Below, in pieces: positions 28,075-60,661 of a stretch of 64,000 nucleotides of DNA. The stretch spans positions 1,092-65,091 of the IMG/VR virus record IMGVR_UViG_3300037453_000856; one strand, given 5' to 3'. The stretch is from a virus. Lineage: Duplodnaviria; Caudoviricetes. The translations under genes were made by a program, and so were the position numbers. The notes beneath the pieces were generated by a model. That model was not told the origin of the DNA. It saw nothing but the letters and a program-made list of their open reading frames with translations, and did not search any database. How positions within the stretch are numbered: the stretch's first letter is position 1; the number at the start of each line of letters is the position of its first letter.

Positions 28075-31000
28075 TGTCGTCTCTTTATCCCTATCCTTTT
28101 GCTGGGCTCGACCACGAGACCTCTCTCAAGCCTGTTAGCGACAAGGACAGGGAAGAGACCGCTAAGTTTCTTAAGGATGACGTTTGGCCTGTCGTAAAGC
28201 CCGTTTTGCACGGCGGCAAGGTTGCTCTTGACTGGCTTTTATATCCTGCTCAGGTTTTGTGGAATCCCGTTGCTCTTGGCTCTCGCGAGTTTAACCGCCG
28301 CTACCTTTATCCTCTTACCGAATCTGCCGGCTATATTCCTCAAGACATTGAGGATTATTTCTCTTATCGCAACGCCCTTCGTACTGGTGCTTCCAAAGAA
28401 GAAGCTTCCGAGCTTCTTTCTGACGTAAAAAAGCGGCATCTTGACGCTCTTTCGCAGGTCGTTTTCCCTTATGTTGAAGGCCTCAATGATGAAAACGAGC
28501 CTTTTGGTCGTCGCCTTTGGAACCATCTTCAGTTCCCCGGCACCGATAAGGCTGGTAACTTTTCTACGAAAGGTGCTCTTACTGAATTTTTCGCTCCCGG
28601 GCACTTTATTGGCAGCGTTCCTAGCGGCATTGAGGTTGCCCGCCATTTTAACAAGCAGCTCGGTTTGAAAGGCGCTGGCGCCGTTCCCTCCTATGTTTTG
28701 TTTCCCGGGCTCGGTTTTGCCTCCGATTTTGCCATCAATAAGCGTCTTGGCTTTAAGTTCAACGCCCTTACTCCTTCCGGTCGCTCTTCTGCCGTTCCTC
28801 GCACTGCTTCTTCTTCTTGGTATCGCGAGGCTCGTAACGGCCAGCGTGCTCTTCTTCAGCTTGCTGACATTCCTCTTGTCCGCGGCGAAGGTGTTTACAG
28901 GCGCCTTTCCAACCTTGGCAAAGCCATGGATGCTTATCAGGCGTCCCGCGTTCTTAAGTCCAATTCTCCTTACTTTGAAACTGGCCCTGCTACCAGCAAA
29001 AACCTTTCTCGCGATTTTGCGGAAGGGTTTGTTAATCATTATGACTCCCTTGTTGCTCCCAAGATTGATTCTATTCCTCTTGTTACCAAGGTTATGTCTT
29101 ATCCCTACCGTTACGGCAGGGCTCTTGCTGGTATGCCTCCCGCTCGTGTTCGCGAACTTCGCCGTATTTCTGGCGCTTCTTCTGATCCTCTTGACGCGTC
29201 TTTCCTTTCCAAGCTTTTCGAGAATTCTCCTTCCTCTCCTGTTTATCTTCTCCCCACTTCCGACGCCGCTGACGTTATACGCCACGCTCCCATTCCTGTC
29301 CACGTTTCTGAGGTTCCTTATTTGCAGGAGGTCTATTCTGCCTCCTCCGCTCCTTCTACCGCTGAGAAGGTCGTTAGGTCTCTTTATATGCAGTCTTACA
29401 CTCCTAAGGTTGCCGTAAACAACGCCTTTAACGCCGGCCCTCAGTCTGTCAACTCTGGCGCTCGTCTTTATTCTCCCACTTATTGGAAAGCGTTTTTCAA
29501 TTCTCTGTTTAACCGTCGTTCTTCTAGCAGCAAATCTATTTCCGACGCCCGTCGCGCTTTTGTTCAGAACAGCCTTTCCGATATGGTTTCTTTTGGCCCT
29601 GCTGATAAGGGCTTTGGCTATAAGGTCGTCGGCTATGTTCCTCGCACTCTTGCCAAGACTTCTGGCCGCTTTGAGCGTGCCGCCAGGACTGCTTCTTATG
29701 CCGATCTTGTTGAGCAGGGTTGGTCCCCCAGCCGCGCTTATTCTGAGGTTCTTAATTCTTTTGTCGACTATAGCAGCCCCACCATGTCCTCTCGTGTTGT
29801 TGGCCGTATTTTGCCTTTCCCTCAGTTTTATTTCGGCAATACTGCTAACAACATTCGCATGGCTTATTCAAACCCTGCTATGATGGTTTATCCCCGGTAC
29901 CTTGCGCAGAGCCTTAACAATTCTAATGAGGCTTACGTCAAGGACCCCGTTGCTTATGACAATCAATATGGCTTTAACGCCCACATTCCTGGCACCGACG
30001 ACAAAATCAACTTCCGCTCTTACCTCCCACAGTTAAAGAACTCTCCTGGCGATCTTGTTTATTCTGGCGGTCGAATCACCCTCCCTTACGAAAACTTTTT
30101 AAAGGCCATTTATGGCGCTTTTTCTGACGAGGTCCCTCCAAATGATCCTTTGCGTCTTCATGCTCCTGCTCCTGTTCCTTATATTTCCCTTTCCTCCACC
30201 CCCTCCTCCCCCGAAGATCTGAAGCGAAATCAGACGATCGTTGACTTTATTCGCTCCGTTCCTCTTTCTCGCGATCTTTATGATTTTCTTGTTTCTGGCA
30301 ATTCTGATGCTTATAACTTTACTACCGGCAAGAATCAGCCCGATCTCCCGTCTCGCCTCGCTCGTTACTTTTTCTCCGTTTCAGAAGACACTCCTGCCGT
30401 TTCTTATTATTCTCGATATCGTAATCTTGTTAATAACTTGATCGAGAACAATGCTGGCTTCGAGTTTGATCCTTCTGTCTACCGCTTCCGTGACCTCATT
30501 GAAGAGCTTTACGGTCGCTCCCTTTCTCCTTCCAGTTTTACTGAAAAGCTTGTTGAGCCTGGCGATTCTTATCCCGAGCATGAGTACGTTGATAGCAGTT
30601 ATTCTCCTGAGGATTTTGATAGCTATCTTTATCCTTTGTCTCAGGCGCTTGCCCCTTATAAGAATCGCGCTTATATCGACAATTCTGAACTCGGCGAGCT
30701 TTTGCACGCTCTTATTTTCAACCGCAACGCTCGCGTGTACTTTGACACTTCTAAGATCGATCAGTTTGCGTTTTCTTCTTTAGGCGCTTTTGCTTCCGTT
30801 CTTTCTGATCTTGTTTATAATTCTGACTTGCGCGGCGATGACGCCATCGCCTATCTTTCTCCTTTCCTTTTGACTAATCGTCAGTTGGGCAATACAGACG
30901 TCCCCAAAGACGAACTTGATAAAAAGGTTCTCAAATATTGGCCTATTGATGAAACTGACACTCCCGACTATCGCAATCCTTTTTTGTACGACGGTACTTA

Positions 31001-43104: not shown

Positions 43105-43282
43105 TTTCTTGTTCCTTTAAAGTTTTATATTCGATGATTTCGTCTCTTGCTTGCAGAAGTTCTTTCGTTGCTTTTTCCAGCAACATTTCTCTTATTTGCG
43201 GAATCGATTCTTCTTCCGCCTCTTTTAGGGCTAGCAGCGCCCTTTTTGCGAGCGCTGCTACCTTTACCACCAGCGATCCCAT
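43085..43282 (-). CDS. Small helical protein
   Basis: TAATG coupling to annealase. Confidence 0.6.
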   Translation of the reverse strand: MGSLVVKVAALAKRALLALKEAEEESIPQIREMLLEKATKELLQARDEIIEYKTLKEQENERKQD

Positions 43283-43998
43283 TACAAGCCCCTTCTGCCG
43301 GGGAACCTGTTGTTCCCGTTGAAACCGCCGCCGTTGTCTTCGTCAGGCGCGTCGACTTGGGCTTCGGTGTCTCCGTACGTGTAGACCGTTTTCTTCAGCG
43401 TCCTGTTGTAGATGGCGAGAGCGACGATCTTCTTGTCCACTATTTTGATTTCCTGGACTTCGAATTTGTCGTACTTGTCTCTGAACAATCCGCTCTTGAT
43501 CCAGATGAACGGAGCCGTGTACAGCTCTCTTCCGATGCCCCAGTTGAAGCACGCGCGCTTAAAGCTGTCTGAAGCGAGGCCTTTCTCTGCTTCGGTGTTT
43601 GATTCCGTGCCGGTGTCTTCTTTGCTCACCCAGTCGTACTTGCTGTCGTCCCAAATTGACACCGTACAGTTGGCGTTGTCGCGGCTGTGCGCTCTCTTCC
43701 AGTTGAACGGGCCTACTGTCTCGTCGAGCACGTTCATGTCACATCTGGCGTCTTTGTAAAGGAGGAGCGACAAGCCCGTTTCCTTCACCGTCGAGATTCT
43801 GCAATCAATTTCGTCGGCTCTCAGGTCCCTGAACTCCAGGCGTTTAGCCTTCGGCGTTTCCCGTTCTGGTTCGGGTTTGTCAGCGACGATCTGGTTTTGT
43901 TCCTGCTGTTCTCGTTTTACATCCTCTTCGTCGAAGAAAAGGTCCTGCTGTTCTTCCGGGTCTCTCTGGATGAATTTACTAACTTTTTCTAACGTCAT
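43282..43998 (-). CDS. Rad52/Rad22-family (Sak-like) ssDNA annealing protein
   Basis: YKDARCDMNVLDETVGPFNW, WVSKEDTG, EKGLASDSFKRACFNWGIGRELY. Confidence 0.9.
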   Translation of the reverse strand: MTLEKVSKFIQRDPEEQQDLFFDEEDVKREQQEQNQIVADKPEPERETPKAKRLEFRDLRADEIDCRISTVKETGLSLLLYKDARCDMNVLDETVGPFNWKRAHSRDNANCTVSIWDDSKYDWVSKEDTGTESNTEAEKGLASDSFKRACFNWGIGRELYTAPFIWIKSGLFRDKYDKFEVQEIKIVDKKIVALAIYNRTLKKTVYTYGDTEAQVDAPDEDNGGGFNGNNRFPGRRGL

Positions 43999-52979: not shown

Positions 52980-53774
52980 TTAAGCGGTGGCAGCTTCCGC
53001 TTTTTCGGGACCCAGGAGCCTCTTGATGCAGAGGAGAGCCGCGGTCATCGCCTGGTAATACGCGGTCTTGTTGCATTTGACAAGATCGAGCATTTTCTGG
53101 CAATATTCCTCGCACTCCTGCTGGGTCTCGTAGATGTTTTCACCCATGCGGGCGAGCATCTGGTGGGAGAACAAAGCGGCAGCGAGTTCTTCCTTGGGCT
53201 TGGCTTCGTCGGTCATCCAGTAGCGTCTGGTGCCGGGGAGGAAGCCCATGGCGTGGAAGATCTCGTGCAGGACGGTCATCTTGTCGTGGACAGTCTTGAC
53301 CGCGTCCTTGGTCAGCGAGATGGTGACCTCGTTGGTGTCTTCGTCGAGCGTGGCCTTGTTGACCTCGTCAGGGTTGCAGACAAACCTGACGCCCATGGCC
53401 TTGACCTTATCCACTACAGCCTTGAACTCAGGGCGGGGTTCGCCGTCCTCGGCGACCTTGCCAACTCTCAGCCACTTGAGGCTCTTGACCTCGCGGTAGC
53501 CGGTCTTTGGATCGGGCTTTTTGTCGACAACGTAGCCATTTTCGACCACAAATTTGCTGGTGTCAACGCCGCGCTTCTTCGCGTAGTACTCGCTCTCGAA
53601 GTCGCCGGACTCGTTGAACACGCTCATGAGGCAGAACTTGTTGATCTTCCCGTTGAAAGAAACGGGGTTGTAATGATCTTCAATCGGCATTCCGGCCTTG
53701 TAGGCGTCGATCGCTTTCTTGTTCATACCGCACTTGTTGTGATAACTGTAAAGAGATTTGATGTTTTTGTCCAT
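52980..53774 (-). CDS. ArdC-like / polyvalent-protein zincin metallopeptidase
   Basis: VLHEIFHAMG HExxH, KEELAAALFS, C-terminal helices like the ArdC protease domain. Confidence 0.65.
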   Translation of the reverse strand: MDKNIKSLYSYHNKCGMNKKAIDAYKAGMPIEDHYNPVSFNGKINKFCLMSVFNESGDFESEYYAKKRGVDTSKFVVENGYVVDKKPDPKTGYREVKSLKWLRVGKVAEDGEPRPEFKAVVDKVKAMGVRFVCNPDEVNKATLDEDTNEVTISLTKDAVKTVHDKMTVLHEIFHAMGFLPGTRRYWMTDEAKPKEELAAALFSHQMLARMGENIYETQQECEEYCQKMLDLVKCNKTAYYQAMTAALLCIKRLLGPEKAEAATA

Positions 53775-54770: not shown

Positions 54771-55511
54771 TCAGAGGCCTAAAGCCTTCAATCTGAGTTC
54801 GATTTCGGCTCTGAACTTCCTATTCTTGGCTCGTTCCTCGTCCCTGGCCTGACGCTCGTCGAGCTTTTCAACCTGGCGCCTGAGGGAACGCTCTTTGCGT
54901 TCCTGCTCTTTGCGTTCCTTGTTGATGGCTTCCTTTGTCCAGATGACTTGGATTCGTCCCTGGCATTTGAGCGCAGCGACTTCCGAATCCACCGCCGTGT
55001 TGTCATAGATGACTTCACCTGGGTAGCGCTCCATCTGCTTGGCCATGCGCTCGACCACGTGCTGAGGCACGCCGTGGATGTTGCTGCGGTTGCCCTTGAC
55101 GTGGATGACCTGGAAGTAAGCGTTGTACTTCTTAGCCAGCTTCCTGTAGAACTCGATGTGCGCGTTCTTGACGAAGGTGTTGGCCACAACGACGTACTTG
55201 CCCACGGCGAGGAGACGCTCGGCCTTCTGCTGGCAGTAAGCTATAGCCTTGCCTATGTACAGTTTGTTGTACTTGTACTCGAGATCGTCGTCGGTGAAGT
55301 AGTCGTCTTGTTCGACGGGAGCGACGGGCTGAGTCAGGCAGAAGTGCGCGGCGAGCTGCTCGGCAGCTTTTCTGGCCACGGTGGACTTGCCGGAACCCGG
55401 TATGCCCTTGAAGATTAAGAGGATTTTGCGACCGCGAGCGGCCTCGATGACGCTGGTCGTGATGCCAGCAACGTTGGCAGTGAGGGTGCCAGCCGTTTCA
55501 ACTTTGCTCAT
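54771..55511 (-). CDS. P-loop polynucleotide-kinase-like protein (AAA_33 / N4BP2-like)
   Basis: KGIPGSGKST, EQDDYF, VVVANTF, SNIHGVPQHVVERM. Confidence 0.85.
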   Translation of the reverse strand: MSKVETAGTLTANVAGITTSVIEAARGRKILLIFKGIPGSGKSTVARKAAEQLAAHFCLTQPVAPVEQDDYFTDDDLEYKYNKLYIGKAIAYCQQKAERLLAVGKYVVVANTFVKNAHIEFYRKLAKKYNAYFQVIHVKGNRSNIHGVPQHVVERMAKQMERYPGEVIYDNTAVDSEVAALKCQGRIQVIWTKEAINKERKEQERKERSLRRQVEKLDERQARDEERAKNRKFRAEIELRLKALGL

Positions 55512-55556
55512 AGCTTGTGCCTTTGAGTTGTGGTTAATTGTATAAATCCTTGTTGT

Positions 55557-55636
55557 TGGTGGAGGTGGCGGGACTCGAACCCGCTTCTCAAGCTTCCCTT
55601 TTCGGGCTTAAGCCTGATCGACGCCTTATCACCCCC
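55557..55636 (-). ncRNA. 80-nt tmRNA tRNA-like domain lacking the mRNA-like domain (mini-tmRNA)
   Basis: GGGGGUG/CACCUCC acceptor with G3-U70, A73, encoded CCA; stemless D-loop AUAAGGCGUCGA; 8-bp P2a UCAGGCUU/AAGCUUGA; GAA linker; T-arm GCGGG-UUCGAGU-CCCGC. Confidence 0.85.
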
Positions 55637-55652
55637 ATGCACAACAAATTTG

Positions 55653-56111
55653 TTAGTCCGTGAGGAAATCCAGAGCATCCTCGGCGATTGCTTTCGCCGT
55701 GGTTTCTATGTCCTGGAAACGCCTTGTGGGGCTGTTGCTCTTGCCCCAGTAAAACTCACCGTCGAACGACTTGTACCAGCCGCCCGTGATTATCGAGCTT
55801 CCGGTTGTGTCAATGGTCATAATGTCTACGCAAAAGACCTTCTCATCGTTCCCTACCGGGAAGTCTTCCATATCGTCCTGGCTTGTGCCGATTTCGAAAT
55901 GTGCGCACGTGACAGCTTCTGGATGCTCTTCGTTGACGATGTCAATCTCCTGGTTCCTTTCTGTGTCCTCGATCGTCTTGTTAAAGACGTATAGCGACCT
56001 GACGGTCGTGCACTTGGGATTGGAGTAAAACAGAGCGTACTCCCTGAGCAGCTCCTTTACGAGGTCGAAGACTTCGTAAAACTGCTCTATGTTCATGAAT
56101 TTGCTAAACAT
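55653..56111 (-). CDS. Hypothetical acidic protein
   Basis: AAGGAGG SD; downstream of hairpin H3. Confidence 0.75.
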   Translation of the reverse strand: MFSKFMNIEQFYEVFDLVKELLREYALFYSNPKCTTVRSLYVFNKTIEDTERNQEIDIVNEEHPEAVTCAHFEIGTSQDDMEDFPVGNDEKVFCVDIMTIDTTGSSIITGGWYKSFDGEFYWGKSNSPTRRFQDIETTAKAIAEDALDFLTD

Positions 56112-56254: not shown

Positions 56255-56674
56255 TTACTTGCCGTTCCTTATGGATTCCCTTTCTTCCATGAGAATCTTG
56301 CCGAGCATGTTCTTGCCATATCCGTTGCAGACACCCCAAAAGGTGTCGCCCCAGGTATTGCCTTCTACTAGCTCTTCGTCACCAGTGTCGATCAAAAGCT
56401 GTCTGAGCTCAGGGTTTTGGAACTTCTGGTGAATGACCCACTTCATGACTTCGACTTTAATCTTGTCCCAGTCCGGGCGAAGGCTAACGCTTCTGCCGAG
56501 CCTTTTCGCCTCTTTGCCCGAGAGCCCGGCGAACTTGGCACGCTCATCCATGTCTTTGGTCTTGAAAGACTGGAATACGGCTTCCGTGCAGGTGTATTCC
56601 TTGCCACCCATCGTGATGTTCATATTGAACATGTTGGAGAGGAAGAAATACTTACCTCTAAATCTGTCAATCAT
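56255..56674 (-). CDS. NADAR (YbiA-like) N-glycosidase / ADP-ribosyl hydrolase
   Basis: FRGKYFFLSNM, TEAVFQSFK, EAKRLGR, RPDWD, KF.NPEL..LL.TG, LVEGNTWGDTFWG, GKNMLGKILM. Confidence 0.92.
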   Translation of the reverse strand: MIDRFRGKYFFLSNMFNMNITMGGKEYTCTEAVFQSFKTKDMDERAKFAGLSGKEAKRLGRSVSLRPDWDKIKVEVMKWVIHQKFQNPELRQLLIDTGDEELVEGNTWGDTFWGVCNGYGKNMLGKILMEERESIRNGK

Positions 56675-57075: not shown

Positions 57076-57104
57076 ATGATAGCAAAAGTTTCACAAAAAG
57101 TCAA
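57076..57104 (-). promoter_or_regulatory. Sigma70-type promoter
   Basis: TTGACT-17nt-TATCAT immediately downstream of a terminator. Confidence 0.8.
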
Positions 57105-58247: not shown

Positions 58248-59054
58248 ATGCGCAAAAGCACAACATATGGTAGGGTGTCACTTAACCTGATACAAGATAT
58301 GGCGTACGTTAGGCGCAAGAAAAAAGACAAAGAGATAGACGAAACCGGCGTTATAGCCGAGTGGAAAAAGGAGTTCAAGCTTGTGGTGATGACGGCTGTA
58401 AAGGCCGGAGCTACGAAGAAGGAGCTCCAGGAAAAGGTATTGGAGAGCTTTCTCGACTATTGCGGGAAGGTTGATATTAGCGGCGAGGACATGGTCGATA
58501 TGGTCATGAAGATAGCGCCGACCAAGGAGGACATCAAGGAGAGCGACTTGGGCGCTCCTGTCAGCTATGCGAAATTTGCGGAGAGCATAATAGAGGACAG
58601 GGACGACAAGGTTGCCAGCGACTATACGATACAGGCCGAGGAGATGCTTAAGAAGGCCGAAGCCGAGAAGATAAGCGCGCAGCATGTGCAGCCGTTCAAG
58701 TACGGCGAGGACATCACCTATCCTGCGGGGGTCACTTTCGATGCGCAGTCCGAGGCAAAAAAGCAGGGCTTCTCCGAGGTAACGCCACCTTCTGACGACG
58801 AGGACGAGTTTAGCAGGAACATGCGCAAGTTCGATGCCAAGGAGCTTGTCGAGGCTGCCAAGCGTCATAGTGAGGAGATGGACAACAAGCTTATGCGTGT
58901 GCGTGCCGCGGCTAAGAAAGGCGGCGTCATCAGGGACGTCAGGGAGAGCCTGAGGTTTAACGGGCTCAGCTTTTGCGAGGCTCCCAGTAATCCGTTTAAG
59001 GGAGTTCCCGAATCGGAGCGGCCTTCTCTTAAAGACGACTCAGAGGACAACTGA
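58248..59054 (+). CDS. Putative terminase small subunit (start probably ATG approx 58296)
   Basis: Position immediately before TerL with TGATG coupling; helical and charged. Confidence 0.5.
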   Translation: MRKSTTYGRVSLNLIQDMAYVRRKKKDKEIDETGVIAEWKKEFKLVVMTAVKAGATKKELQEKVLESFLDYCGKVDISGEDMVDMVMKIAPTKEDIKESDLGAPVSYAKFAESIIEDRDDKVASDYTIQAEEMLKKAEAEKISAQHVQPFKYGEDITYPAGVTFDAQSEAKKQGFSEVTPPSDDEDEFSRNMRKFDAKELVEAAKRHSEEMDNKLMRVRAAAKKGGVIRDVRESLRFNGLSFCEAPSNPFKGVPESERPSLKDDSEDN

Positions 59055-60661
59055 TGCCTTATACTCCCGAGATGGTCAGCTATGCTCTTGATCCCGCAAG
59101 GTATGCAGAGCTCAAGATCAAACCCGAGAGGAGCCTCACCCCCATCGAGGCAAAGCTTCTCGCCACTCAGGAGCAGTTCGACGCCAGCAACTTCGGCTTT
59201 TTCAACGTTTATTTGACTGAAAAACAGTGCCATATCGTCGAATGCGCCAAAAAGTACAACGAGGTTATCATAGAGGGCGGCGTCCGTTCCAACAAGACCT
59301 TCGGCATTGCGTACTTTTCATGCTGCCGTCTCGGCAACTTTTATCCCATAGGGTATGTTCCTTACAGGACCAAGTACGGCGAGCGGATTTTCAGGCCCAT
59401 TTTGAAAAAGATGATCCTGCCCGACACCAACCCCGTGGCAAAGGTGTGGTTTTCCGTCCTTACCCGTCCTCTCGGCGCGGCTCCCGGCGGTCTCCAGCAG
59501 ACTTTTATGGCCCTTTTGCCTAAGCCGTGGCTAAAGAGCAAGCATACCGTCGGCGGCATATACTTGACCAGTATCGAGCTTGTCAATGGCGCTCAGGTGG
59601 AAATCAAATCGGCTGACGCTGGCCGCGAGGCTTATCAGTCCGCCACTATCGATCTGCTTGTGGCCGACGAGGGCCATACCTGGGAGGTCATATCTGAGGC
59701 TACTTCCCGTTCCGGTTCCTATCCCCTTAAGTTCATATACGGCTACTTCCCGATTCCTGAAGAAGGCACCACTTGGGTCAAGGAAAAGTATATCCAGCCT
59801 GAAATCGAGGGCAGAACTCCCGCTTACAGAAAGGTCATCAAGGTAAACTATCTTGAGAACGCCTTTATTCCCAAGCCCAAGAGAGACGAGCAGGTCGAGC
59901 GCTGGATAGAGAACCATGAGTTCGAAGAGCGCGCCTACGGCGACTTCGGCGAAATCAAGGGCCTTGTTTACAAGGAGTTCAAGCGTTCTACCCATGTCAT
60001 GAACGCCATGGACATCCCGGCTTTCAAGGCGAACGGCGGCGAGCCTCCTGATCACTGGAAGCGATTCTGCGCTATCGATACTCACAACTCCAGGAAAGGC
60101 TGCGCGGCGGTCATGTGCGCCATCGATCCTGCCACAGGCAGGCGGTATTATTACAACGAGTATCAATCCAACGGCGATCCCTACACCTGGTTCGACTATT
60201 TCAACAAGCTTCATGCTGAGCATCCCTTCGAAATGGTCTGGATCGATCCGTCCGCTTTTGCCACTGACGCTTCCGGGTTCTCCATCGGTGAGAAGTTTAT
60301 GGAGATGACTAATCTTCCCATGGAGAAAGCCTTCCGAGACAGGGCCCAGGGAATCCGAGCCGTCACTCTTGCGCTTAACCCGCTCCGTCTTCCCGACGGA
60401 TCGCGGCCTCTCGACGGCCTTCCCGGCATGATTGTCTGCGAGCATTGCTACACAACCATAAGGCAGCTCGAGACTTATGCCAGGAAGTCAGACGTTTACA
60501 CCGACGTTTTGAAAGTTAATGACGAATATTGCGACTGCGTTCGATACATAGAGGTTCAGGAGCCCCAGACGTTCTTTGGCGTTAGTTACGTCAATGACGA
60601 CGTCAGCCAGCTCGACCCCGATGAAGATATTAATTTTAATCCAAACCTTCGCGTTATATGA
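59054..60661 (+). CDS. terL: Terminase large subunit
   Basis: GGVRSNKT Walker A, LLVADEG Walker B, FCAIDTH nuclease Asp, WIDPS, DEYCDCVRY. Confidence 0.92.
   Translation: MPYTPEMVSYALDPARYAELKIKPERSLTPIEAKLLATQEQFDASNFGFFNVYLTEKQCHIVECAKKYNEVIIEGGVRSNKTFGIAYFSCCRLGNFYPIGYVPYRTKYGERIFRPILKKMILPDTNPVAKVWFSVLTRPLGAAPGGLQQTFMALLPKPWLKSKHTVGGIYLTSIELVNGAQVEIKSADAGREAYQSATIDLLVADEGHTWEVISEATSRSGSYPLKFIYGYFPIPEEGTTWVKEKYIQPEIEGRTPAYRKVIKVNYLENAFIPKPKRDEQVERWIENHEFEERAYGDFGEIKGLVYKEFKRSTHVMNAMDIPAFKANGGEPPDHWKRFCAIDTHNSRKGCAAVMCAIDPATGRRYYYNEYQSNGDPYTWFDYFNKLHAEHPFEMVWIDPSAFATDASGFSIGEKFMEMTNLPMEKAFRDRAQGIRAVTLALNPLRLPDGSRPLDGLPGMIVCEHCYTTIRQLETYARKSDVYTDVLKVNDEYCDCVRYIEVQEPQTFFGVSYVNDDVSQLDPDEDINFNPNLRVI

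Follow-up and report, generated by a model that had tools for sequence, protein, structure and literature searches.

A tmRNA gene reduced to its tRNA-like domain in an uncultured rumen phage, and its relatives among viral and metagenome contigs

Known tmRNAs that lack a tag-coding region

The tmRNA-SmpB pair is the main ribosome-rescue system of bacteria and has been proposed as an antibiotic target. Natural tmRNAs devoid of a coding sequence (CDS-less) persist beside SmpB in mitochondria and plastids, the plastid genes of Mallomonadaceae measuring about 65 bp (PMC11915505). Among phages, Hudson, Lau and Williams (2014) list Mycobacterium phage DS6A as "TLD only", in reference to the tRNA-like domain (PMC4131195), and a 2025 tmRNA database paper repeats this entry and names no other phage case (PMC11915505). 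We located the DS6A gene at 28478-28560 of JN698994, where it matches the Rfam tmRNA model RF00023 at 43.2 bits with the middle of the model missing; DS6A integrates at a tRNA-Lys gene (PMC10865867), and its TLD is therefore not its attP. According to the accounts of Mao et al. (2009) given in PMC4131195 and PMC11915505, a molecule resembling the DS6A TLD had a strong inhibitory effect on tmRNA in E. coli, and this effect reportedly did not depend on its capacity to be charged. Engineered TLD fragments bind SmpB and, with it, enter ribosomes in vitro, where peptidyl transfer and polyalanine synthesis proceed without mRNA; the crystallised domain joins the 5' 25 nt and the 3' 34 nt of T. thermophilus tmRNA via UUCG (PDB 2CZJ; PMC3929946). 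In E. coli tmRNA the contacts to SmpB are made by U17, C18, G19 and A334, of which A334 and U17 form, with A15, a pocket for SmpB Trp122, while G19, stacked on C18, is needed for SmpB binding (PMC8363625).

The RNA gene described below is of this published kind, and constitutes a further case in an unrelated phage. A preliminary description of the locus had cited as precedents only jakobid mitochondria and the TLD in vitro, and for that reason overstated the implied novelty, a TLD-only phage tmRNA having already been published for DS6A (PMC4131195; PMC11915505). The breadth of the family to which both RNAs belong, and the statistics of its conservation, have not been described as far as the searched literature shows.

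An 80-nt tRNA-like domain gene in a rumen phage

The stretch of DNA analysed (the window, 64 kb) comprises bases 1092-65091 of a 65,091-bp IMG/VR virus record that carries direct terminal repeats and is rated 100% complete. It derives from an uncultured rumen phage, and near-identical DNA is present in bovine gut metagenomes of several studies. The minus-strand sequence at 55557-55636 is, letter for letter, the one segmented in the preliminary description, and it matches RF00023 at 56.6 bits (E 1.6e-19, Rfam cmscan; gathering cut-off 47 bits), the sole gathering-level Rfam match in the window. The match is aligned over model positions 1-374, thus including both ends, with 12 nt standing for 306 internal positions. 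The minimum-free-energy (MFE) fold of the 80-nt RNA (-33.5 kcal/mol, z -2.84, 51% of the ensemble) agrees with the structure given earlier, whose elements are as follows.

55557..55636, minus strand: whole TLD-only (CDS-less) tmRNA gene, 80 nt (RF00023, family model R1 and MFE fold)
55630..55636, minus strand: acceptor stem, 5' strand, RNA positions 1-7, with G3 of G3:U70 (sequence, fold)
55618..55629, minus strand: stemless D-loop, RNA 8-19, with GG and UCGA, 12 nt unpaired (sequence, fold)
55610..55617, minus strand: P2a helix, 5' strand, RNA 20-27 (fold)
55596..55609, minus strand: A-rich 3-nt bulge and 3-bp mini-hairpin with 5-nt loop, RNA 28-41 (cmscan, fold)
55588..55595, minus strand: P2a helix, 3' strand, RNA 42-49 (fold, covariation, relatives)
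55585..55587, minus strand: 3-nt linker GAA, RNA 50-52 (fold; invariance of A51)
55568..55584, minus strand: T arm, RNA 53-69, 5-bp stem and 7-nt UUCGAGU loop (cmscan, fold)
55557..55567, minus strand: acceptor 3' strand with U70, discriminator A73 and encoded CCA, RNA 70-80 (sequence)

The tRNA-like domain is complete: an acceptor stem of 7 bp that includes G3:U70 in both the sequence and the MFE fold, a stemless D-loop, a T arm and a 3' CCA are all present, together with alanine identity. The 14-nt bulge and mini-hairpin that caps the 8-bp P2a helix occupies the place of pk1, the tag ORF and pk2-4 of a full tmRNA, so that sequence, RF00023 match and MFE fold all bear out the description of a complete alanine-type tRNA-like domain without these parts. 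Pseudoknots pk1-pk4 are absent, only the 14-nt bulge and hairpin lying between the P2a strands, and a resume codon and tag frame with a stop were not found, 306 model positions being missing and ARAGORN reporting no tag. An anticodon arm with an alanine anticodon is likewise absent, the central hairpin consisting of the 8-bp helix, the bulge and the 5-nt loop. ARAGORN called no tRNA or tmRNA anywhere in the 64-kb window, which indicates that this program recognises neither an anticodon arm nor a tag ORF in the RNA. The two halves stand in the standard one-piece order, 5' half and then 3' half, rather than in that of a two-piece tmRNA, and the models of permuted tmRNAs (RF01849-51, RF04321) gave no gathering-score match in the window; the outcome with Infernal and ARAGORN, an end-to-end RF00023 match with RF01849-51 and ARAGORN silent, thus upholds the earlier assignment. 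We also considered a mini tag frame, GCU-UAA, at RNA 24-29. It lies inside P2a and is not a conserved mini-frame, because several family members (judged by eye, uncounted) have no stop at that place.

The 80-nt gene is accordingly a tmRNA cut back to its tRNA-like domain, of the type of the DS6A "TLD only" RNA, and alignment with DS6A and 11 other family members shows the same architecture throughout. Both phage RNAs measure 80-83 nt and match RF00023 end to end minus its middle; both have a 7-bp acceptor with G3:U70, a stemless D-loop with GG and UCGA, a T arm, a P2a closed by an A-rich bulge and short hairpin, and a short linker with a conserved A. Neither is an attachment site, the window phage having no integrase. 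They differ in that the phage described here is unrelated, uncultured and from the rumen, that its RNA encodes CCA whereas DS6A ends in CTA, that it scores 56.6 bits against RF00023 vs 43.2 bits for DS6A, and that it is placed in an early operon next to genes for a NADAR protein and a polynucleotide kinase (PNK)-like kinase.

With standard SsrA tmRNA (RF00023) the RNA shares the tRNA-like domain, the alanine identity elements and the SmpB-contact nucleotides, but it has no pk1, resume codon, tag frame or pk2-pk4 (about 300 nt); lacking the mRNA-like region, it provides no degradation-tag template and no stop codon. Organelle CDS-less tmRNAs are likewise natural, without a tag frame, and kept together with SmpB, and the plastid genes (about 65 bp) are similar in size to a 64-65-nt marine phage class considered below; however, the organelle forms serve their own ribosomes, whereas the phage RNA is virus-supplied and must rely on host SmpB. 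Engineered TLDs (PDB 2CZJ; Shimizu and Ueda 2006) also consist of two TLD halves joined by a short hairpin, but they are laboratory constructs, and the natural RNAs have a longer P2a and a conserved A-rich bulge and mini-hairpin. Lastly, tRNA-Ala genes with an odd D arm in Pectobacterium phage Bobbio and in Pseudomonas phages resemble the RNA in their G3:U70, their 78-nt length and an RF00023 score of 34 bits, yet they possess a genuine anticodon arm, with UGC as the anticodon, and reach just 39.7 bits against our family model R1.

Nucleotides matching the SmpB contacts are present in the sequence of the phage RNA. On the Rfam alignment U16, C17 and G18 would be the counterparts of E. coli U17, C18 and G19, and A51 of the linker evidently corresponds to A334 of the Trp122 pocket. 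A51 is invariant in the family (70/70 and 72/72 members), at a position that was left free in all search patterns. No SmpB gene (PF01668) was found anywhere in the phage genome. The acidic 152-aa product of the ORF upstream of the RNA was considered as an SmpB and rejected, having no match in Pfam, PHROG or PDB and no clear lead in the Atlas.

The genome has two arms. Structural genes, among them a large terminase and a portal-like protein, occupy the plus strand from about 57.1 kb on and continue at the window start, and replication and early-type genes occupy the minus strand from about 57 kb down to 32 kb. The features around the RNA gene are these.

59054-60661, plus strand: large terminase, among the structural genes
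57076..57104, minus strand: sigma-70-like promoter, TTGACT, 17 nt, TATCAT with TG (consensus scan only)
56255..56674, minus strand: NADAR-domain protein, first recognisable gene of the operon (PF08719 6e-24; phrog_1017 2e-42)
55653..56111, minus strand: acidic orphan protein, 152 aa, no family match, syntenic in three relatives
54771..55511, minus strand: P-loop kinase of polynucleotide-kinase / KTI12-PSTK type, 246 aa (PF13671, PF08433)
52980-53774, minus strand: weak ArdC-like profile match, below cut-off

The kinase matches PF13671 (AAA_33, 7e-11), PF08433 (KTI12, 1.6e-5), phrog_2071 and phrog_505, has a basic coiled-coil tail and matches the T4 PNK kinase domain (1ly1) weakly. The RNA gene lies near the head of a leftward operon, beside the NADAR and PNK-like kinase genes, which agrees with its placement among the earliest, anti-defence-type genes in the preliminary description. 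The stop codon of the orphan ORF is 16 nt upstream of it and the start codon of the kinase 45 nt downstream. A consensus scan detected no promoter- or terminator-like site next to the RNA gene, the nearest minus-strand terminator-like site (56046-56031) falling within the upstream ORF, and we would expect the RNA to be excised from a polycistronic transcript, since no promoter or terminator of its own adjoins it. The promoter-like site at 57104-57076 could drive the leftward operon that holds the RNA, which is weak evidence because the scan found sigma-70-like sites no more often than in shuffles (2 vs 2.5 expected). Contigs of two metatranscriptome libraries span the RNA and its flanks; level, ends and strand cannot be read from them, and DNA carry-over may account for them. 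A separate 277-nt contig of high depth in an RNA library matches the last 35 nt with 3 differences and may represent a bacterial tmRNA or tRNA.

Searches for close cultured kin of the phage and its RNA found none. In INPHARED, no cultured phage has a large terminase more than 26% identical to that of the window phage, no large-terminase relatives were found in IMG/VR, and a megablast search of cultured phages with the 2.2-kb region came back empty. With the 80 nt as query, blastn returned only matches of the 3' half to T arms of tRNA and tmRNA.

The gene neighbourhood bears on one alternative, in which an abundant RNA of this kind soaks up a defence factor that acts on acceptor ends or on the TLD shape, for example a toxin that modifies or cuts the 3' CCA or the acceptor stem, or a defence protein with SmpB-like domains, and in so doing protects host tRNAs or tmRNA that the phage needs. 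The counter-defence-type neighbours (NADAR, the PNK-like kinase and the weak ArdC-like match) and the synteny of the kinase in three relatives speak for such a decoy, as do published findings that CoCoNuT type II/III-A defence systems have SmpB-like domains predicted to bind tmRNA and that tmRNA is the commonest reported RtcB repair substrate (PMC11090510). The argument is nevertheless one of context. Because the RNA has no anticodon arm it cannot lure anticodon nucleases, which makes a decoy of that sort unlikely; no neighbour is common to all lineages of the family, and no Rnl2-type RNA ligase was found in the phage genome to complete a repair pathway (a search for a T4 Rnl1-type ligase also gave no match, but its own control matched nowhere either). 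We regard a decoy role as improbable.

Comparison within the lineage addresses the more basic question of whether the gene has a function at all. Three related rumen-phage contigs (L234, L236 and L237), reached through two flanking proteins, keep the RNA in the same gene order, including the syntenic kinase. In L234, whose kinase protein is 78% identical, an 80-nt RF00023 match of 61.8 bits is 75/80 identical to the window RNA, and all five changes fall in loops (D-loop positions 10, 11, 14 and 15, and position 38 of the hairpin loop); at the DNA level the upstream ORF is 69.5% and the kinase gene 80% identical, and the trailer contains an insertion. L236 and L237, whose orphan protein is 85% identical, have a third allele of the RNA with a loop change at 38, D-loop G12 changed to A, and C25 to U together with G44 to A, the last two being compensatory (C25:G44 to U:A) and retaining the sixth P2a pair. 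A strain variant among the RNA-library contigs shows 28 differences in 844 nt, and none of the 27 listed lies inside the RNA; the differences restart at the first base on either side of it (P about 0.06 if all 28 are outside). As the changes in relatives are confined to loops or are compensatory, and the flanks are less conserved, these comparisons fit a structured RNA under purifying selection rather than decay.

The gene could, in principle, be a remnant of a full phage tmRNA, a copy of an ssrA attachment site, or a signal by which RNase P punctuates the operon. The last of these accords with the position of the gene, which follows one ORF by 16 nt, precedes the next by 45 nt and lacks its own promoter and terminator; an element so placed would in any case serve as a processing site, irrespective of further roles. 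But the 80-nt form is kept in relatives and better conserved than the flanking genes, and the family retains three features that are dispensable for RNase P, namely G3:U70, A73 and the SmpB-contact A. The preliminary description had itself named a decaying pseudogene and an attP duplicate of ssrA as outcomes that would undo its reading. The first is contradicted by the relatives, in which the RNA is still 80 nt long and has changed only in loops or in a compensatory way. As to the second, both TLD halves are present, an attP typically containing the 3' half only, and the complete 65-kb genome with its direct terminal repeats encodes no integrase, nor indeed any tyrosine or serine recombinase (Phage_integrase and Resolvase families); it contains no second tmRNA. 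A remnant, attP or processing signal without RNA function is therefore largely excluded, and we consider it very improbable.

A family of RNAs with the same design

Relatives of the RNA were sought with a first pattern that set two TLD halves 15-45 nt apart and fixed G3:U70, A73 and CCA. It gave the following matches, which represent 69 distinct RNAs of 64-90 nt.

IMG/VR viral contigs: 9
Prokaryotes (185,579 species, one genome each): 3, all on short contigs of metagenome-assembled genomes (MAGs)
Metagenome contigs: 102

All pattern scans together yielded more than 100 distinct sequences of 62-90 nt, mostly on phage contigs among the viral and metagenome contigs, as against the 3 matches in the 185,579 species genomes. 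The loci are flanked by phage genes (endolysin, tail fibre, phage DNA polymerase, PHROG families), and ARAGORN called none of the family RNAs a tmRNA. Clustering of 934 flanking proteins revealed no universal neighbour, only lineage-specific ones; in a tblastn of the window proteins against 230 loci, a Rad52-like protein was found to adjoin the RNA at two loci (L003 and L067), and little else was matched apart from one NADAR hit. When three representatives of the family were compared with cultured phages by blast, no TLD-only RNA was matched over its full length. What the comparison did return, full-length tmRNAs (Kumao, SlimJimmy) or a true tRNA-Ala (Bobbio and relatives), was set aside.

The shared structure was assessed on an alignment of 70 sequences including DS6A. 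The named structure is paired in 88% of alignment cells vs 64% in shuffles, and its covariation score is 0.592 vs 0.139 in shuffles (0/500 reach it) and 0.08-0.14 with partners slid. Acceptor pairs 5:72 and 6:71 and the two outer T-stem pairs covary. The first four P2a pairs are paired in 70/70 sequences, with 4-6 pair types each, in a helix that lies wholly within the unconstrained gap of the search pattern. Alignment is poor in the columns of the mini-hairpin (44% paired), many members folding individually with an A-rich bulge and then a short hairpin, while a marine class of 64-65 nt has a bare 6-bp hairpin in that place. A covariance model, R1, was built from 72 family members including DS6A but not the window lineage, and it separates the family from other RNAs as follows.

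Window RNA: 81.7 bits (E 4e-17, model positions 1-80, sole match in 64 kb)
Relatives of the window RNA: 77-85 bits
True phage tRNA-Ala: 39.7 bits
Pieces of full or permuted tmRNAs: at most 33 bits

Since the first pattern had fixed G3:U70, A73 and CCA, a second scan was run in which only the D-loop and T arm were constrained. Among the 42 distinct RNAs in this set that have at least 6 of 7 acceptor pairs, G3:U70 occurs in 40 and A73 in 40, at positions that were free, and an encoded CCA in only 12. Taken with the folds and the covariation, this conservation across the family indicates that the compact form is an old and widely conserved design; the word "deleted" in the preliminary description, suggestive of recent loss, is in this respect misleading.

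The near-invariance of the alanine set is also an argument that charging, and with it entry into the ribosome, matters, and this keeps open a reading in which the RNA is a helper of translation: a charged TLD, with host SmpB and EF-Tu, would free stalled ribosomes without a proteolysis tag, or add only one or more alanines. The phage would gain translation capacity when host shut-off or abortive-infection RNases cut mRNAs, and its own proteins would be spared ssrA-directed degradation. Besides the AlaRS identity set kept in 40/42, the company of tRNA genes, usual for translation-support genes, agrees with this: they lie on the same strand within 1 kb at 46 of 115 family loci, some of these loci being inside large tRNA arrays and one of them inside an array of 27 tRNAs. 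Polyalanine formation through peptidyl transfer by TLD and SmpB in vitro (PMC3929946), and the retention of CDS-less tmRNAs alongside SmpB in mitochondria and plastids (PMC11915505), point the same way. On the other hand, the window RNA sits among counter-defence-type genes and not tRNA genes; with no stop codon there is no known release of the peptidyl-TLD, for which ArfB, drop-off with Pth, or a second round of tmRNA would be needed; and the sole in vivo test of such a molecule, as later accounts relate it, gave inhibition. We rank this helper reading second, after competition with host tmRNA, and judge it rather unlikely.

Proposed interference with ribosome rescue

Competition with host tmRNA is, in our analysis, the best-supported net effect, because it is the only reading with an experimental precedent. 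Most likely the RNA is charged with alanine and, bound to host SmpB, competes with the tmRNA of the host so as to block or divert trans-translation, a proposal that we put forward with modest confidence and slightly favour over its negation. By analogy with established tmRNA biology, the 80-nt RNA would be transcribed in the leftward early operon and excised as tRNAs are, by RNase P at G1 and by trimming at the 3' side, CCA being already encoded. Host AlaRS would add alanine by way of G3:U70 and A73, and host SmpB, the phage having none of its own, would bind through the U-C-G of the D-loop and the A of the linker. The resulting complex of Ala-TLD, SmpB and EF-Tu would rival full-length host tmRNA both in recruiting SmpB and in entering ribosomes whose A site is empty; because the RNA has no resume codon or tag frame, rescue would be uncoupled from ssrA tagging, and the net effect in infection would be a dominant-negative block or a diversion of host trans-translation. 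Processing, charging, SmpB binding, competition and phage benefit are all, in this scheme, what we infer from that biology; the analyses above themselves establish the identity of the RNA, its structure, the selection on it and its family membership.

Two considerations temper this scheme. We know of no benefit to a phage of blocking trans-translation that has been shown so far, and several phages need tmRNA for good growth. Furthermore, pure titration of SmpB does not explain the strict G3:U70 and A73, since inhibition is reported to be independent of charging. A charged form of interference is worth stating for the family at large: that TLD-only RNAs, rather than being passive SmpB sponges, need charging for their activity and, as Ala-TLD with SmpB and EF-Tu, go into stalled ribosomes and turn host trans-translation into template-free addition of alanine or into tag-free rescue. 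This is a tentative proposition, which we think somewhat unlikely as it stands.

For the window alone, the result amounts to the solid annotation of an RNA whose type is published, if little known, and not to a new system; the RNA gene is real, unannotated and conserved. From the perspective of the family, a natural tmRNA consisting only of the part that binds SmpB, AlaRS and EF-Tu, earlier known from one phage, is now represented by more than 100 distinct sequences; the viral and metagenome contigs that carry them come from several sample sources, bovine gut included. Such RNAs escape annotation, being missed by ARAGORN and omitted from genome annotations. Their strict alanine identity, which SmpB titration "charged or not" leaves unexplained, raises the question of whether the phage RNA must enter the ribosome. 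Resolving it would clarify the mechanism and the purpose of phage interference with ribosome rescue, and could lead to a compact natural scaffold for inhibitors of trans-translation. If the charged-TLD reading is true, these RNAs would amount to a widespread and unannotated phage takeover of ribosome quality control, whose signature would be that G3:U70 and A73 hardly vary among many unrelated phage lineages.

Genes accompanying the TLD-only RNA

[quoted passage not shown]

54771-55511, minus strand: PNK/KTI12-type kinase
43282-43998, minus strand: Rad52/Rad22-like protein

At its C-terminus the kinase extends into a long coiled-coil tail of basic character; it is devoid of a phosphatase domain, and the phage genome yielded no Rnl2-type ligase. 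The order of orphan gene (encoding an acidic protein), RNA and kinase is kept in three related rumen-phage contigs (L234, L236 and L237), and a functional link between kinase and RNA is possible. In L234 the trailer leading from the RNA to the kinase start (L234:2037-2109, versus 55512-55556 in the window) is lengthened by some 28 inserted nt, with an inverted repeat TTGTC ... GACAA; the final 25 nt or so ahead of the kinase ATG are conserved.

Homologues 44% identical to the Rad52/Rad22-like protein occur on other contigs bearing a TLD-only RNA (L003:3668-4012, L067:178-522, L157 and L158); the L003 and L067 copies are encoded immediately downstream of the mini-tmRNA.

A shorter marine class and a tRNA look-alike

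We also recognized a distinct class of TLD-only RNAs, of 64-65 nt, on marine metagenome contigs (L021, L040, L041, L052, L064, L083, L089 and others), in which P2a has shrunk to a hairpin of 5-6 bp closed by a loop of 3-4 nt. Its usual neighbours are a tRNA-Ile gene at 170-500 nt and a nearby endolysin gene, and its members are about the same size as the plastid forms that lack a coding sequence. A phage tRNA with an aberrant D arm could be misread as a mini-tmRNA; an example is the following gene, which also appears in Pseudomonas and Mycobacterium phage matches and has a sub-threshold tmRNA score:

L233:562-639: tRNA-Ala(UGC), 78 nt

Its annotation varies by genome, from tRNA-Ala to hypothetical protein to none.

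Larger tmRNA genes in other phages

Three unannotated tmRNA features were detected in other phages:

L011:2933-3280 (OK149171.2, about 55.0-55.35 kb), Alcaligenes phage vB_Af_QDWS595: permuted (two-piece, beta-type) tmRNA gene; RF01850 93.8 bits, RF04321 111 bits
L013:1970-2159, crAss-like Bohxovirus sp. PV686213.1: permuted tmRNA match; RF04321 70.6 bits
L232:224-635, Mycobacterium phage SlimJimmy, OQ995428.1: full-length tmRNA; RF00023 99.7 bits

The first, with the tag ANDNVYAAAA (ARAGORN), is enclosed by an unannotated tRNA array of this member of the Schitoviridae. The Bohxovirus genome (Crassvirales) came from an endotracheal aspirate. The SlimJimmy tmRNA is flanked on both sides by annotated tRNA genes, yet is itself without annotation; in the related phage Kumao, a 407-nt tmRNA is annotated.

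A contig possibly bearing on the host

The last 35 nt of the window RNA (55557-55591) recur, with three differences, in a 277-nt contig assembled from a rumen metatranscriptome at a very high depth of about 1800; beyond this stretch the two sequences diverge. This contig is probably the 3' end of a bacterial tmRNA or tRNA, and could offer a clue to the host of the phage.
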